In this document: one piece after another, positions 53,202 to 60,916 of the stretch
Layout: each line of letters starts with the position of its first letter
How positions within the stretch are numbered: position 1 is the first letter of the stretch
Origin: a virus
Lineage: Duplodnaviria; Caudoviricetes
Strand: one strand, 5' to 3'
Length of the DNA stretch: 64,000 nt
IMG/VR virus record: IMGVR_UViG_3300044633_001982
Made by a program: the position numbers and the translations under genes
The notes under the pieces: generated by a model
Told to the model about the DNA's origin: nothing
Seen by the model: only the letters and a program-made list of their open reading frames with translations
Databases searched by the model: none

Positions 53202-56200
53202 ATGGCTAAATCAAACACAGTTTTCGTTTCTCCAGGTGTGTATACATCTGAAAGAGATTTGAGTTTTGTGTCTCAAAATGTGGGTGTAACTACTTTAGGT
53301 ATTGTTGGTGAAACTATTAAGGGACCGGCATTTGAACCTATATTTGTCACTAACTATGACGAATTCCAACTTTACTTTGGAGGTACTTCACCTGAAAAAT
53401 TCATAAACACTCAAATACCTAAGTATGAGGCGGCGTATATCGCCAAATCTTACCTACAACAATCTAATCAACTTTTTGTAACTCGTGTATTAGGGTTATC
53501 CGGTTATGACGCTGGACCATCATGGTCTATCAGTACTGTTGCAAATGTTGATTGTGATACAATAATATTCACAGGGTCAACAAACTATTTACTTACATTT
53601 ACAGGTACATCCGCATCAACATCGTCAATAACATTTGGTTCGGTTCCAACTGCTTTAAATCCGAATATTTTCTCATTACCATACACTACATTTAATGGTG
53701 GGACATCATCAATTTCTGATGATATGAAATCATTGGTATTGAATATTATGAGGTCACAAGCAACTTCTGCATACACAGGTAGTATGTGGGGAACAATTCC
53801 GGCAAGTGCTTATACGTCGTATTCATCAGTTTACTCAGCAATTACAAATGAATACGGAGTTACCAGTTTATCGGCAATTACGTGTGATTCAAAAAACGAC
53901 CCATGGTTTTATTCCACATTTGGTTTAATGTATGGTGATTCATATTCAGGAATTTCATTTAATGCATCGGTAACATCATTATCGGGTACTGCTTATGGAA
54001 ACGCGGGTTCTTTTTCAGGATGTGTATCAGGTACTGTATTCTCATATTCAGGAACAGCATTTTCTGATTACAATGATATTGTTGTCGCAACTTTACGTTC
54101 TAGAGGTTTAGCTGATTACTCAAGTGATAACGGACCTGTTTATCAAGTTTCCGCAACAACTGCGTTGACTATGGTGTGTTCGGGGTCTTATTCAGGAGTA
54201 ACTAAGAATCCTTTATCAACATTCTTATTATCAGGAAATACTATAGATAATACTAATTTCACATATGAAGTTAATTTATTAGAAACTAGTCCTAATTTCA
54301 TTTCTAAAGTTCTTGGTGTATCTAATTTTAGTAAACCTAGAACAACGTTCCCTCTATTTGTTGAAGAAGCGTACACTACTTTAATTAATTACGCATACAA
54401 TAAAGGATATATTAGAGGTCTGAATTGTGGTTTAGACACATCTGCTAAAGCTAGAGATTTGACTACAGATTCTTTAGGATGGTACCTTGAACAATATCAA
54501 AGTGCCGAGTCTCCATGGGTTGTGTCAGAATTGAGAGGTAATAAAATTTATGAATTATTTAAATTTTTCACTATTTCAGATGGTAATAATTCTAATACAC
54601 AAGTTAAAATTACAGTTGCAAATATATCATTCACAAATGGTACTTTTGATGTAATTGTTAGAGATTTTTACGATACTGATAGTAACCCTGTTGTTGTTGA
54701 GAAATTCTCAAATTGTAGCATGGACCCTAACTTGAATAACTATGTTGCTAAGAAAATTGGTACCTCAGATGGTGAATACCAATTAAATTCTAAATATGTT
54801 ATGCTTGAAGTTAATGTTGATGCACCAATAGACGCGTTACCATGTGGATTTGAAGGATATATTAACAGAGAGTATCCTTCATCAAATTCGGCTTTCCCAA
54901 TATATAAGACAAAATATTATATTCCTGGTGAAACAATATATGACCCTCCTTTCGGTAATTCTGCTGGTGTTAATAACGACACTCAAAGTTCAGGAGACAA
55001 CGTTAGAAGAAGTTATTTAGGTTTCTCAAGTCAATTTGGTATTGATGAATCTTTATTAATTTATAAAGGTAAACAAAATCCTGTAAGTGATTTCTGTGAC
55101 GCAGTAACTGGTTCTGATTGGGCATATTTGTCAAGAGGATTCCATATGGATAGTGGGGCTACAGTTGTTACAATAGGTCAATTAAGTCCTAATTATAATG
55201 GTTTAACAACTTCAGGAAACCAAGCGTTTGATTGTGGGGTTGCGTCATTTAATACTGAACCAACTTCTGAAACTAATCCTTACTATAGATTATATTCTCG
55301 TAAATTCACTTTAGCATTACAAGGTGGTTTTGACGGATGGGATATCTACACTGAAAGAAGAACTAATTCTGACAGATTTGTGTTAGGTAGAAGTGGATAC
55401 TTGGCAGGTGCTTGTGTATCGACATCATATCCTTTAGCAACAGGTACAGGTATGTTTAAACAAATTACTGTAGGTGACAATAGTGTTGATTGGGCAAATA
55501 CTGACTATTATGCATATTTGTTAGGTCAAAAAACTTTCTCAAACCCTGAAGCGGTTAATATTAACGTATTTGTTACTCCTGGTATTGATATTGATAATAA
55601 TAGTAATTTAGTTGAGGCGTCTATTGATATGATTGAAAACGACAGAGCGGATTCAATCTATATTACGACAATCCCTGATTTTAATTTATTACAACCATCA
55701 ACTTCAGTTGATAATTTATATTACCCACAAGAGGTTGTAGATATTTTAGAAACTGCGGGTATTGACTCAAACTATACCGCAACTTACTATCCTTGGGTGT
55801 TGACTCGTGATACAGTTAATAATACCCAAATTTACTTACCTGCAACTGCTGAAGTAACAAGAAACTTGGCATTAACTGATAACATTGCGTTCCCATGGTT
55901 CGCAGCCGCTGGTTACACAAGAGGACTAGTAAACGCAATCAAGGCTCGTAAAAAGTTAACTCAAGAAGATAGAGACACATTGTACAAGGGTAGAATTAAT
56001 CCTATCGCAACATTCAATGATGTCGGAACAGTTATTTGGGGTAATAAAACACTTCAAATTAGAGAGTCAGCATTAGATAGAATTAACGTTAGAAGATTGT
56101 TGTTACAAGCACGTAAGTTGATTTCGGCAGTGGCTGTAAGATTATTGTTTGAACAAAACGACGCGGTAGTTAGACAACAATTCTTAGATGCGGTTAATCC

Positions 56201-56387
56201 AATCTTAGATTCTATTCGTAGAGACAGAGGTTTATATGACTTCAGAGTTACAGTTCAAAACACTCCTGAAGATTTAGATAGAAACCAAATGATAGGTAAG
56301 ATTTACATCAAACCAACTAAAGCTCTTGAATTTATTGATATTGAGTTCTTAATTACTCCAACTGGAGCTTCTTTTGAGAACATCTAA
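53202..56387 (+). CDS. Contractile tail sheath protein
   Basis: SPGVYTSERDLS, GETIKGPAFEP, YYPWV, PWFAAAGYTRG, YKGRINPI, WGNKTLQ, RINVRRL, IKPTKALEFI. Confidence 0.97.
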   Translation: MAKSNTVFVSPGVYTSERDLSFVSQNVGVTTLGIVGETIKGPAFEPIFVTNYDEFQLYFGGTSPEKFINTQIPKYEAAYIAKSYLQQSNQLFVTRVLGLSGYDAGPSWSISTVANVDCDTIIFTGSTNYLLTFTGTSASTSSITFGSVPTALNPNIFSLPYTTFNGGTSSISDDMKSLVLNIMRSQATSAYTGSMWGTIPASAYTSYSSVYSAITNEYGVTSLSAITCDSKNDPWFYSTFGLMYGDSYSGISFNASVTSLSGTAYGNAGSFSGCVSGTVFSYSGTAFSDYNDIVVATLRSRGLADYSSDNGPVYQVSATTALTMVCSGSYSGVTKNPLSTFLLSGNTIDNTNFTYEVNLLETSPNFISKVLGVSNFSKPRTTFPLFVEEAYTTLINYAYNKGYIRGLNCGLDTSAKARDLTTDSLGWYLEQYQSAESPWVVSELRGNKIYELFKFFTISDGNNSNTQVKITVANISFTNGTFDVIVRDFYDTDSNPVVVEKFSNCSMDPNLNNYVAKKIGTSDGEYQLNSKYVMLEVNVDAPIDALPCGFEGYINREYPSSNSAFPIYKTKYYIPGETIYDPPFGNSAGVNNDTQSSGDNVRRSYLGFSSQFGIDESLLIYKGKQNPVSDFCDAVTGSDWAYLSRGFHMDSGATVVTIGQLSPNYNGLTTSGNQAFDCGVASFNTEPTSETNPYYRLYSRKFTLALQGGFDGWDIYTERRTNSDRFVLGRSGYLAGACVSTSYPLATGTGMFKQITVGDNSVDWANTDYYAYLLGQKTFSNPEAVNINVFVTPGIDIDNNSNLVEASIDMIENDRADSIYITTIPDFNLLQPSTSVDNLYYPQEVVDILETAGIDSNYTATYYPWVLTRDTVNNTQIYLPATAEVTRNLALTDNIAFPWFAAAGYTRGLVNAIKARKKLTQEDRDTLYKGRINPIATFNDVGTVIWGNKTLQIRESALDRINVRRLLLQARKLISAVAVRLLFEQNDAVVRQQFLDAVNPILDSIRRDRGLYDFRVTVQNTPEDLDRNQMIGKIYIKPTKALEFIDIEFLITPTGASFENI

Positions 56388-56404: not shown

Positions 56405-56430
56405 AAAAACCCCCTTATTGGGGGTTTTTT
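56405..56430 (+). terminator. Rho-independent terminator (possibly bidirectional)
   Basis: AAAAACCCCC-TTATT-GGGGGTTTTTT right after the sheath stop. Confidence 0.85.
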
Positions 56431-56453
56431 ATTTTAAACAATATTTATATAAT

Positions 56454-57296
56454 ATGAAAAGAATTTTTGAAGGTTTCACAGAAGAGGGTACTCCTGATTT
56501 AAAATATTATGCATTTGATTGGGATGATAATATAATGTATATGCCAACTAAAATTATCTTAAAAGAAAAAAATGGTAAAGAGGTTGGTATGGGTACACAT
56601 GATTTTGCAAAATACCGTACATTAATTGGAAAAGAAGAGTTTGAATATAATGGCAATACTATTGTAGGATTTTCAGATGACCCGTTTAGATATTTTGGAG
56701 AAAAAGGTGATGAAGAATTTTTGATTGGTTGTTTGATGGCGAAAAAAGGTCCTGCTTGGAGTGATTTTGTAGAAGCAATAAATGGTGGGTCAATTTTTTC
56801 AATAATTACTGCAAGAGGTCATCACCCAAATACATTAAAAAGAGCGGTAAAACAATTAATTGACGGTGAAATCGACGGTATTTCTAAACAAGAAATTGTT
56901 AAAAATTTAAAAAAATATAGAGATAAAGTTAAAGGACTCCCAACTGAAAAATTAGATGATAATACACTTATAAATTTATATTTAGAAATGTGTCAATTTT
57001 ATCCTGTTACACATGGTGAAGGAAGTGCGACAAATCCTGAAGACGGTAAAGTTAAAGCTATGAGAAAATTTATATCATATGTCAGACAACAGGCGAAACT
57101 TTTACAAAAAGACGTAGAAATGATTGACGATGTATCTAATTCGTTTGTACCACAAATAGGTTTTTCAGATGATGATGAAAGAAATTTACAGGCTATGATT
57201 AATAAATTATCTGATGACGAAGAAAAATCTTTAAAAATGTATACTACTAAGACTGGTGAAAAAAAGAAGTTTCAAGGAAGCAATACTGAAGACTAG
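56454..57296 (+). CDS. HAD-superfamily phosphatase-like protein
   Basis: AFDWDDN motif I, IITARGH motif II, GFSDDD motif IV. Start reassigned to 56454 because the track start lies inside the terminator; TATTTATA at 56442-56449. Confidence 0.65.
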   Translation: MKRIFEGFTEEGTPDLKYYAFDWDDNIMYMPTKIILKEKNGKEVGMGTHDFAKYRTLIGKEEFEYNGNTIVGFSDDPFRYFGEKGDEEFLIGCLMAKKGPAWSDFVEAINGGSIFSIITARGHHPNTLKRAVKQLIDGEIDGISKQEIVKNLKKYRDKVKGLPTEKLDDNTLINLYLEMCQFYPVTHGEGSATNPEDGKVKAMRKFISYVRQQAKLLQKDVEMIDDVSNSFVPQIGFSDDDERNLQAMINKLSDDEEKSLKMYTTKTGEKKKFQGSNTED

Positions 57297-57390: not shown

Positions 57391-57879
57391 ATGGCTGATT
57401 TGCTGATGAAAATGCCGATTCCTTACGAACCGAAAAGGCAGAATAGATTTATATTAAGATTTGATTCTTCTTTAGGAATCAATGAATGGTTTGTAGAATC
57501 TACAAGTAGACCACACATCACAATCGGTGCTACGGAGATTCAATTCTTAAACACTTCTACATTCGTAGCTGGTAGATTTAACTGGCAGACAATTAACGTT
57601 ACGTTCCGTGACCCAATTGGACCTTCAGCTGCTCAGGCTCTTATGGAGTGGGTTCGTTTACATGCTGAATCTGTAACAGGACGTATGGGTTACGCTGCGG
57701 GTTATAAGAAAAACATTGATTTAGAAATGTTAGACCCGACAGGTGTTGTTGTTGAAAAATGGTTGTTACAAGATACGTTCTTAACTGACGTTAACTTTAA
57801 CCAATTATCTTACTCACAAGATGGATTGGCAACTATCACGGCAACTTTAAGACCTGATAGATGTATCTTAGTTTACTAA
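57391..57879 (+). CDS. Tail tube protein (gp19-like)
   Basis: EPKRQNRF, RP.IT, WQTINVTF.DPI, LDPTG.VVEKW, L.PDRC. Confidence 0.9.
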   Translation: MADLLMKMPIPYEPKRQNRFILRFDSSLGINEWFVESTSRPHITIGATEIQFLNTSTFVAGRFNWQTINVTFRDPIGPSAAQALMEWVRLHAESVTGRMGYAAGYKKNIDLEMLDPTGVVVEKWLLQDTFLTDVNFNQLSYSQDGLATITATLRPDRCILVY

Positions 57880-57897: not shown

Positions 57898-57924
57898 AAA
57901 AACCTCACATATGTGGGGTTTTTT
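57898..57924 (+). terminator. Rho-independent terminator
   Basis: AAAAACCTCAC-ATAT-GTGGGGTTTTTT after the tube stop. Confidence 0.8.
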
Positions 57925-57976: not shown

Positions 57977-58729
57977 ATGGACTCAAGAGAAGCCGGACAA
58001 ATGAATTTTAATTTACCACACGATATAGTGACACTACCAAGTGGGGGTAAATTTTATAAAAATAAAAAGAAAAGTGTTAAAGTTGGATTTTTAACTGCTT
58101 CAGATGAAAATCATTTAGTTAATATTAAAAAAGCTGATTCACAATCTATCATAAATGCAATTGTTAGAAACAAACTTTATGAACCTGATATGAAACCAGA
58201 ACAGATGTTAGATGGGGATATTGAAGCGGTTTTGGTATTTCTTAGAAATACTTCATTTGGTCCTAATTATAGTATACCTGCAATTGACCCTGCAACTGGA
58301 GAGTCATTTATTGCAAATATAGACCTATCTGAGTTAGATATTAAAAAAACTAAAGAAGAACCTGATGGTGAGGGTTTGTTTGTTACAACATTACCTAAAA
58401 GTAATGTATCCGTTAAATTAAAACTTTTAACGTTTGGTGAAGACTTAGAAATTGAAAGACAACTAGAAGGTTACCCACAAGGACTTACTCCACCAAGAAT
58501 TACAAAAAGACTATTAGAACAGATTGTTGAATTAAATGGTACGAGAGATAAAGGTGAAATATCCAAGTCAATTGAAAAAATGCCAATTACTGACTCAAAA
58601 TATATTCGTAATTTTTTGAGTGAAAACGAGCCAAGATACGATTTAACAAAAGAAGTTATCGCCCCGTCCGGAAAAAAGGTATCCTTGAGGATAGCCTTTG
58701 GGGTGGAGTTTTTTCGGCCTTTCTTCTGA
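57977..58729 (+). CDS. Tail assembly chaperone / baseplate hub (gp26-like) protein
   Basis: VTLPSGGKFY, LTASDE, DIEAVLVFLR..SFG; located between tube and tape measure genes. Confidence 0.75.
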   Translation: MDSREAGQMNFNLPHDIVTLPSGGKFYKNKKKSVKVGFLTASDENHLVNIKKADSQSIINAIVRNKLYEPDMKPEQMLDGDIEAVLVFLRNTSFGPNYSIPAIDPATGESFIANIDLSELDIKKTKEEPDGEGLFVTTLPKSNVSVKLKLLTFGEDLEIERQLEGYPQGLTPPRITKRLLEQIVELNGTRDKGEISKSIEKMPITDSKYIRNFLSENEPRYDLTKEVIAPSGKKVSLRIAFGVEFFRPFF

Positions 58730-58745
58730 TTACTACGAAGTACAA

Positions 58746-58871
58746 ATGAATGAGTTTCTTTTATTATCAATGAAACTCAATATGTCCTACGAAGATTTCT
58801 TACTTATACCGGTATTCCAAAGAAGGTATTTAATTAATAAATTAGTTGAAATGAATACTCCTAAGGAATAA
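58746..58871 (+). CDS. Small gp51/gpE'-like ORF, probably the +1 frameshift extension of the upstream gene; not in ORF track
   Basis: The +1 frame is open from 58695 and reads ...FFGLSSDYYEVQMNEFLLLSMKLNMSYEDFLLIPVFQRRYLINKLVEMNTPKE. Confidence 0.7.
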   Translation: MNEFLLLSMKLNMSYEDFLLIPVFQRRYLINKLVEMNTPKE

Positions 58872-58897: not shown

Positions 58898-60916
58898 ATG
58901 GGATTTTTAGAAGATTTAGGTTCGGGTCTTAAAGATGTATTAGATGCATTTGTTGGCTCATTAGGTAGCTCTCTTAAAGAAAGTATAAGTACTGATGTTA
59001 TATTAGACAACTTAGATAGAGTTGACGTAGGTATGACTCAGATTATCGGAGGGATGGGCGCTGGTCGAGAATTATCCCATTTAATAAAGTCAAATATTGC
59101 CGGTGCGTACACCAACGTCAAACTTTTAGGTGGTGATTTAGAAAACATTGTACAACAACAACAAAATCTAAATGACAGTACTGGTAGACAATTAATATTA
59201 CAAAGAGAATATCACGACGATTTATTTGCGACAACTAAAGTAACTGAACAATCCGCTCACGAATTGATTACAGCATTTGATAATGCTGGTAAGTCAGTTT
59301 ATGACATTAAAAATACAATGGAAGGTGTTGTAAATCAGTCAAGGTCATTAGGATTAAATGCTACCGAAGTATCAACACGAATGGTTGCTAATCTTGAAAA
59401 GATGAACATGTACGGATTTGAAAGAGGTGTTGAAGGTTTGAGTAGGATGGCCGCCAAATCCGCAATGTTTAAACTTGACATGAGTTCAACATTTAATTTA
59501 GCGGATAAATTGATAAGTCCTGAACAAGCTGTTGAGTTTTCTGCAAGATTACAATCTTTAGGTATACAAAGTGAACTTATTGACCCATTTAGAGCTATGG
59601 ATTTAGCGACGAATGATATGGAAGAGTTACAAAACCAAATGATTGAGTTAGGTAAGGGAATGACTTACTATAACGAACAAACAGGTAAAGTAGAAATATT
59701 CAAAGAAAAAAGAGGGGTTATTAAAGAGTTAGCTGCCGCAGCTGGAATGACTTCTACAGAATTTAGTCGAATGATAGTTCAGAGTGAAACTTTGAACAGG
59801 AAAATGGCGGAAATTAAAATGCCTAATTTAAATATTACTGAAGACCAAAAAACTATGATTGCTAATTTAGCGGCAATGAAGGACGGTCCACAAGGTAAGG
59901 GATATTATGTACAAATAAAAAAAGACGATGGTACGACTACGGAAAAACTTGTATCTTCACTGGATGAAAAAGACATACTAAAATTAGCCGACCAAGTTGC
60001 AAATCCAAAAACTATGGAAGAATTGGCTCAAGACCAAGTAGATTTCTTGTCAAGAATGGCAAATAGTTTAGACGCCATTAAAAACGGACCAAGTATGGGT
60101 ATTGCAGGTTCTAAATTAGGTGAAGGTGTGGTTGATTTAACAATTGCCGCAGACGCTTTAGTTTATAAACCTTTGGCTAAAGCAATGGATTCAGGTAAAA
60201 TTGCTGACATTATTGATAAATCAGGTGACGATTTAAAAAAAATATATGAAAGTATAACTACTTCAGCGAGCGGATTTGATGGTACTCTTGCAGGATTTAA
60301 ATCGTTACTAAACACAGGTCTTGATGGTATTACTGACGCAACACTTGATGCCGCACTTGAATTCCAAAACAATTTAAAACAAGTTAAAAGATTAGGTACT
60401 TTTGCAAATTATGGGGAGGTTTTAGATAAGGCGAATGTTAATGAATATAAAGTTGGTGAAGTTAATGACGGGTTTGTATATGGTCAGGGAAATAATAAAC
60501 AAATAGTGCAAACACATCCTGATGATAATGCGTTTTTTGCTCAAAGACAAGGTATGGTCGCTGCGATGGGGGGTATGGACATTCTTCAAAAAGTTAAAGA
60601 AACTATTATAAGTGCTAACGCGCCTACAAACAACAATAACAATTATTTTGAACAATTCCAAAATATGGCGATGAACCAAAATAATACTAAAGAAGTTAAC
60701 CATAAAATGGACCCTATAAAACATGAGGGTGAATTAAAATTTTCTATTGACATAAACGCACCTGCTGGTGTAGATACAAGAGCGTTAAATGAAATATTTA
60801 AAAATAATAGAGGTTTTATGGAAAATTTAGTTGTTCAATTTAATAAACAAATGGCTAACAATTATTTCACAAACGCACCTACTGATGTTAATAGAACTTA
60901 TATTAATGCGGGATAA
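58898..60916 (+). CDS. Tape measure protein
   Basis: Ala/Gly/Gln-rich helical 672-aa protein directly after the tube and chaperone genes. Confidence 0.8.
   Translation: MGFLEDLGSGLKDVLDAFVGSLGSSLKESISTDVILDNLDRVDVGMTQIIGGMGAGRELSHLIKSNIAGAYTNVKLLGGDLENIVQQQQNLNDSTGRQLILQREYHDDLFATTKVTEQSAHELITAFDNAGKSVYDIKNTMEGVVNQSRSLGLNATEVSTRMVANLEKMNMYGFERGVEGLSRMAAKSAMFKLDMSSTFNLADKLISPEQAVEFSARLQSLGIQSELIDPFRAMDLATNDMEELQNQMIELGKGMTYYNEQTGKVEIFKEKRGVIKELAAAAGMTSTEFSRMIVQSETLNRKMAEIKMPNLNITEDQKTMIANLAAMKDGPQGKGYYVQIKKDDGTTTEKLVSSLDEKDILKLADQVANPKTMEELAQDQVDFLSRMANSLDAIKNGPSMGIAGSKLGEGVVDLTIAADALVYKPLAKAMDSGKIADIIDKSGDDLKKIYESITTSASGFDGTLAGFKSLLNTGLDGITDATLDAALEFQNNLKQVKRLGTFANYGEVLDKANVNEYKVGEVNDGFVYGQGNNKQIVQTHPDDNAFFAQRQGMVAAMGGMDILQKVKETIISANAPTNNNNNYFEQFQNMAMNQNNTKEVNHKMDPIKHEGELKFSIDINAPAGVDTRALNEIFKNNRGFMENLVVQFNKQMANNYFTNAPTDVNRTYINAG

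Follow-up and report, generated by a model that had tools for sequence, protein, structure and literature searches.

A conserved +1 reading frame at the end of a gp26-like tail chaperone gene points to a putative +1 frameshift on UUU_Y in a lake-water phage and its relatives

The DNA analysed here, a stretch of 64,000 nucleotides referred to below as the window, derives from an uncultured lake-water phage, has a G+C content of 29.6% and was found to be present in 16 lake metagenome runs. A sheath gene (53202-56387) is followed by an ORF of 292 amino acids without Pfam or PHROG match (56418-57296) and by a tail tube gene of 162 amino acids on the plus strand (57391-57879), which resembles T4 gp19 (phrog_4542, E 6.5e-26) and whose PF06841 match is weak, under the Pfam cut-off. 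The gap between tube gene and chaperone gene contains a terminator-like hairpin on the plus strand with an 11-pair stem and a T-run (57898-57923); an annotated terminator occupies the equivalent place in Bacillus phage SP-15, and the hairpin may set a high expression of the tube relative to a low expression of the chaperone. The gp26-like chaperone gene itself occupies 57977-58729 on the plus strand and encodes 250 amino acids in the zero frame (the short form). Downstream of it lies the probable tape measure gene of 672 amino acids (58898-60916, plus strand), which is assigned by position, as Pfam and PHROG searches with this candidate gave no match. The gene after the chaperone gene is annotated as tape measure in phages immuto, SP-15, HSE3 and LIS04, and the identical order of sheath, tube, chaperone gene and tape measure was found in six named phages. 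Two overlapping ORFs sit between tube and tape measure, as in loci of the lambda G/GT type. A Shine-Dalgarno motif was detected at 1 of the 57 gene starts in the window, versus a background of 10%, and the leaders of its genes are A/T-rich; gene starts of this kind, essentially free of Shine-Dalgarno motifs, suggest a Bacteroidota-like host. No tRNA genes were found within the window.

The preliminary description of this DNA had labelled the product of the 57977-58729 gene a tail assembly chaperone, a label now backed by PF12322, synteny and weak fold matches to the HK97 chaperone. The short form scored 38.1 bits against PF12322 (T4_baseplate; cut-off 24.5) and matched phrog_150 with an E of 8.4e-14 over positions 10-233 of 282, as compared with spans of 14-235 for T4 gp26 and 13-280 for T4 gp51; like T4 gp26, it stops at the end of the PF12322 domain. 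Using the fused form lengthens the phrog_150 match from position 233 to 248 (15 positions, 2.3 bits). The AlphaFold model of the short form has a pLDDT of 90; Foldseek of this model against the PDB gave no match and a profile search against PDB sequences gave nothing. The top three of 48,161 chains in VIA-align were 3fgx (Z 6.0), YqbN 3klu (Z 5.8) and the HK97 tail assembly chaperone 2ob9 (Z 5.6, rmsd 3.4 over 84 residues), none of which reaches the Z of 8 below which the tool advises caution. Chaperone-like PDB chains were seen to align to two different regions of the model (8-104, and 65/132-222, in residue numbers); the model hints at two tandem chaperone-like domains. Weak as they are, these model-based matches are in line with the publication that gave gp26 and gp51 the role of tail assembly chaperones in T4-like phages (Vladimirov, Gautam and Davidson, Virology 2022;566:9-15, as cited in PMC10885494 and PMC12846349).

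The chaperone gene terminates with GAG (58706) TTT TTT CGG CCT TTC TTC and a TGA stop codon (58727-58729). In the +1 frame, a TGA at 58686 and a TAG at 58692 precede an open stretch that extends from 58695 up to a TAA at 58869-58871 and reads WSFFGLSSDY...RRYLINKL, while the −1 frame stops 6 codons past the zero-frame stop. On re-reading the sequence, every detail of the gene end, the +1 frame limits and the short −1 frame came out as first described. A +1 shift on the T-run (proposed site TTT TTT C, 58709-58715, plus strand) leads, by computed translation, to a product of 297 amino acids, in agreement with the extended chaperone of about that size claimed earlier. This long form (57977-58871, plus strand) joins 57977-58714 to 58716-58868, and its +1-frame extension (58716-58871, plus strand) consists of 51 codons plus the TAA. 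Based on base composition, an open frame of 58 codons has a chance of about 0.009, and an empirical null taken from other gene ends in the window is confounded by ordinary overlapping downstream genes. The main support for the +1 frame is comparative, since the arrangement recurs in every readable related locus.

Two protein searches (E <= 0.001) gave 4,248 relatives and 1,451 relatives (representatives at 50% identity), respectively. Among the matches listed, nearly all full-length relatives have their common end 0-6 residues past [FL]F[RWFY]P, and an in-frame fused form was not found among near relatives. The phage's own clade comprised 80 IMG/VR loci with 57-100% protein identity, 79 of them readable, the window included. 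Throughout this clade the string TTT GGG GTN GAR TTT TTT CGN CCT TTC TT is essentially invariant, and in 79 of the 79 readable loci the +1 extension is 48-53 codons long while the −1 frame is always short. The conservation of TTT-CGN and of the +1 ORF, which the preliminary description had proposed as a check, therefore held in the own clade (79 loci). In a second clade (about 35% identical, 78 loci), TTT TTT TGG CCT is kept and the +1 ORF mostly runs for 78-90 codons past the stop. In one second-clade locus (L133) the +1 ORF is just 34 codons long, compared with 86 in near-identical relatives, and this shortness may reflect a mutation or an assembly error.

The arrangement was also followed into seven distant phages, five of which have been cultured: Microcystis phage Mel-JY01, Flavobacterium phage immuto, Bacillus phages SP-15 and HSE3, Listeria phage LIS04, Streptococcus phage GXN1 and one megaphage. 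In all seven, a +1 ORF (74-122 codons) stops just short of the tape measure gene. The single feature common to the own clade, the second clade and these seven phages is an in-frame TTT with T or C as the next base; the +1 ORF extends beyond the own clade (78 loci and 7 distant phages). No frameshift annotation is present in the records of the seven distant phages and of megaphage LR756511, where the extension appears as a small truncated 'hypothetical protein' or as a gap. In a P0214-like third clade (L171-L175), N-terminal extensions of about 400-500 amino acids were observed together with +1 ORFs of 53-80 codons, and several of the short-ORF ends read GTT TTC CTC, ATT TTC TAC or similar, without UUU_Y.

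Position-specific variation was examined by entropy analysis of 45 distinct sequences. Upstream of the site, entropy peaks at zero-frame position 3 (1.00 vs 0.64 and 0.54); downstream of it, entropy peaks at +1-frame position 3 (1.32 vs 0.87 and 0.64). The codon-position variation switches phase exactly at the shift site, which supports translation of the extension as a fusion. Among the 79 loci the extension occurs as 36 distinct peptides with common motifs (GLSSxY, DE[FY], SYxDF, MPxYxR[RK]Y and DKI.E), and its conservation starts at its first codons. A metatranscriptome contig of 151 nt (X18) spans 58669-58819 without an indel, at a depth of 2, too shallow to speak against rare U5 transcripts, and with DNA carry-over possible. 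Complex prediction for the tube protein together with the extension gave a score of 0.00, carrying no verdict either way.

That some recoding event yields the long form is very likely, and a +1 shift made by the ribosome is its probable route. The shift can be localized with the help of six own-clade loci in which a +1-frame TAG stands 3 codons before the extension: together with the zero-frame stop, this TAG leaves E F F R P F F as the codons on which the shift can fall, and of these just the two TTT codons permit re-pairing in the +1 frame. Under this proposal, most ribosomes would stay in the zero frame and stop at 58727, producing the 250-aa short form, while a fraction of ribosomes would shift by +1 with Phe-tRNA positioned at either UUU codon (58709-58714). 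The Phe-tRNA would re-pair with UUU or UUC, C58715 would be skipped with GGC being decoded next, and the shifted ribosomes would continue to 58868 to give the 297-aa long form with its 51-residue C-terminal tail. The slip of Phe-tRNA from UUU to UUC put forward in the preliminary description is supported by these results, with the amendment that either Phe codon may slip and give the same product. The predicted junction of the long form lies in a tryptic peptide beginning IAFGVEFFGLSS, which would contain two Phe if the shift is +1. In bacteria, UUU_Ynn has been described as a sequence on which +1 shifts occur with particular ease, and the PA-X shift site of influenza A virus is UCC_UUU_CGU (PMC5009743). 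What the analysis establishes directly is the layout of the sequence, how well it is conserved, its coding in the +1 phase and the family to which the protein belongs; that the ribosome rather than RNA polymerase shifts, in what ratio the two forms are made and what the tail would bind are inferred.

The zero-frame codon after the slippery Phe codons, CGG (58715-58717, plus strand), was also considered, as the slip had been placed at a slow, presumably rare Arg codon in the preliminary description. Its rarity in this phage was borne out: just one codon in the window is rarer than CGG, which accounts for 4 of 18,433 codons in 53 long ORFs (0.22 per 1000) and for 0.7% of the Arg codons, and the in-frame TTT_CGG at this site is the only one in the 53 long ORFs. 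For this phage, these counts are compatible with slow decoding of the codon. However, relatives have CGT, CGC, TGG, CTA, CAC or AGT at the same position. Because other clades carry ordinary codons there (TGG, CAC and AGT among them), a rare Arg codon is not the general driver of the shift, and the role assigned to CGG does not apply family-wide.

The proposed shift site is embedded in a nearly invariant 30-nt block, TTT GGG GTG GAG TTT TTT CGG CCT TTC TTC (58697-58726, plus strand), in which entropy is close to 0 at 25 of the 30 positions over the 45 distinct sequences, synonymous positions included. In one lake run (X1), many unrelated contigs match the window only over a block of about 37 nt (58694-58733), with a summed depth of 59.5 over the block vs 8.55 in its flanks, indicating that many co-occurring relatives carry an identical block with differing flanks. 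The GGG G stretch (58700-58703) is invariant in all 45 sequences, with GGG representing 16% of the Gly codons in the window, and neither a structural nor a Shine-Dalgarno explanation of it held up. As for downstream structure, RNAalifold returned a weak 7-pair hairpin of invariant bases (−4.5 kcal/mol) without covariation, the RNA fold of the window gave a z of −0.27, and no conserved stimulatory structure was found. A hairpin upstream of the site (58683-58703), picked up in a terminator scan, was paired in 65% of cells, no better than in shuffles, and was rejected as a conserved element.

Frameshifting by +1 of the prfB type combines a stop codon in the A-site with a Shine-Dalgarno-like element that lies 3 nt ahead of the shift codon and acts via the anti-Shine-Dalgarno sequence. 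In this phage GGGGTGGAG stands upstream, and the invariant GGGG recalls that stimulator. The likeness to the prfB type is nevertheless incomplete, as there is no stop codon in the A-site, the second clade lacks the element and the genes of the phage lack Shine-Dalgarno sites; given the last of these, a prfB-like reading of GGGG is doubtful.

The +1 shift by the ribosome was then weighed against other routes to, or readings of, the two overlapping frames. Of these, slippage during transcription fares best, though we consider it improbable. Here the polymerase would drop one U of the U6 run so that a minority of mRNAs encode the 297-aa protein, a possibility to which the invariance of the T6 run in the own clade and of the T7 run in the second clade, together with a hairpin-plus-T-run pattern overlapping the site in this phage, lend some weight. 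Six U's are, however, short for bacterial polymerases to slip on efficiently, the upstream hairpin of that pattern is not conserved, and distant relatives have +1 ORFs at sites with TTT C and no homopolymer (AAC TTT CTA, TTC TTT CGT and TTT CTT TGG).

The preliminary description had also pointed out that its proposal would fall if the small ORF had a start of its own at TTG 58698 or ATG 58746. A separate small gene, using one of these codons or re-initiation and giving no fusion product, would be in line with the small downstream 'hypothetical protein' annotated in several database records and with a TTG standing 6 codons ahead of the extension in 73 of the 79 loci. But this TTG is part of the zero-frame TTT GGG and represents a by-product of the conserved TTT GGG G, and ATG 58746 is retained in just 12 of the 79 loci. 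In the six loci mentioned above, moreover, the TAG comes after the TTG and cuts it off; the earliest start available to them is at extension codon 20-22, and codons 0-19 are still conserved. With the ATG little kept, the TTG a by-product and six loci devoid of an early start, independent initiation is unlikely. Across three clades the small ORF stands at +1 in each locus, TTT_Y always falls within the overlap, and the small CDSs annotated in relatives begin well inside the conserved extension. Taken as a whole, a separate gene is in our judgement very improbable.

A −2 shift by the ribosome on U6 is held to be just as improbable. In such a shift the Phe-tRNA would move back by two bases to give ..EFFFGLSS.., with one Phe more, and perfect re-pairing at −2 is possible on both U6 and U7. 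Frameshifts of this kind are known in phage Mu. They have likewise been described in PRRSV (PMC5009743). Relatives with TTC TTT CGT or AAC TTT CTA cannot re-pair at −2, however, and +1 shifting of a single tRNA on UUU_Y is documented in bacteria (PMC5009743). A −2 shift or the loss of one U would give a nearly identical protein; both keep a small probability for the own clade and are disfavoured because the +1 ORF persists in distant relatives where the site is TTT C without a homopolymer. Finally, a chance overlap, a sequencing error or a decaying gene can practically be discounted, as the same stop position and +1 ORF recur in hundreds of independent assemblies and 16 lake metagenome runs and purifying selection acts in the +1 phase.

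With a +1 shift by the ribosome as the preferred reading, the two predicted products can be set beside those of T4. According to the account of the 2022 study given in the PRFect paper, T4 makes short and long forms from genes 26 and 51. T4 gp26 (208 aa) contains PF12322 alone and ends KEFFELL, while gp51 (249 aa) contains PF12322 and a 48-aa tail. The proteins of the lake phage belong to the same family, with the short form ending just past E-F-F and the long form having about 50 residues more; T4, however, uses two separate and distant genes in place of one gene with a putative +1 shift. The end of T4 gene 26 (L083, 10803-10830) reads GAG TTC TTT GAG TTA CTA TAA, that is, E F F E L L stop, in which E-F-F is kept but the base after TTT is G; gene 25 comes immediately next. 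Scans of phrog_634 and Pfam with the extension and the extensions of six relatives gave nothing, as did BLASTP of the fused form against gp51, while hhalign of 98 fused tails with gp51 tails gave a P of 0.0026 at a probability of 11.6%. In a comparison of the extension with the tail of cyanophage S-CAM22 there was no signal. At the sequence level, the extension and the gp51 tail show at most a suggestive relationship, and the equivalence of the two is drawn from position, size and family.

S-CAM22 (NC_055710.1) itself has a gp26-like gene that ends AGT TTT TTC GCA TAG, and the canonical heptamer T TTT TTC gives access to the tail of its 'truncated gp51' (phrog_634, E 9.5e-33), which is encoded in the −1 frame. 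S-CAM22 shares with the lake phage the protein family, a short form that finishes with S/E-F-F on a T-run, and a downstream ORF that corresponds to the tail of the long form. The phase is different: T TTT TTC with a −1 tail in S-CAM22, and TTT TTT C with a +1 tail in the window phage, indicating that one family uses a U-run in two phases. A more far-reaching idea, which we regard as doubtful but worth stating, is that the U-run of this family would direct −1 shifts in certain clades and +1 shifts in other ones, and that the 30-nt block, with its invariant GGG G, no detectable structure and an apparently non-Shine-Dalgarno host, would act as a new stimulator of +1 shifting.

In systems of the lambda G/GT type, two products are made in a fixed ratio, both are needed for tail assembly, and neither is found in the virion. 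By analogy with lambda G/GT and T4 gp26/gp51, the short and long forms of the lake phage would both act in tail or hub assembly around the tape measure and would both be absent from the virion, with the tail of the long form possibly providing an extra contact. Frameshifting in lambda gpG/gpGT and P2 E/E+E' is a conserved property of tail chaperones (Levin 1993; Xu 2004; reviewed in PMC5009743). Likenesses to lambda and P2 include a locus just before the tape measure, a shared N-terminus and a shift near the end of the short ORF; by contrast, the shift in lambda and P2 is −1 and uses a tandem heptamer, the proteins of lambda are far smaller, and the link by fold is weak. The proposed site resembles bacterial UUU_Y sites and that of PA-X in having a P-site UUU followed by a pyrimidine, with CGN in this phage, and no obvious stimulatory structure, but the bacterial cases are a low-level phenomenon and PA-X belongs to a eukaryotic virus, whereas here the site lies in a phage assembly gene within an invariant block of 30 nt. 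A 'very likely +1' shift has been described for the tail chaperone of the archaeal myovirus HSTV-2 (PMC5009743). The likeness to HSTV-2 is in the proposed +1 direction, by description, and the difference is in the host domain.

Frameshifting in tail chaperone genes is textbook recoding, and to our knowledge nearly all of the tail chaperone frameshifts described are −1. The two-form principle is already published, and the case in the window is very probably a well-supported forward-slipping variant of it, as judged from sequence. Across a very large group of myoviruses, from lakes, from the sea and from culture, the long form appears to be made via +1 shifting on UUU_Y, and annotating it properly would supply these genomes with a further real protein. 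The group offers a natural series of +1 sites with varied next codons (CGG, CGT, CGC, TGG, CTA, CAC and AGT), and the prediction is directly testable in cultured relatives. It also ties T4 genes 26 and 51 to a general two-form principle of tail chaperones.
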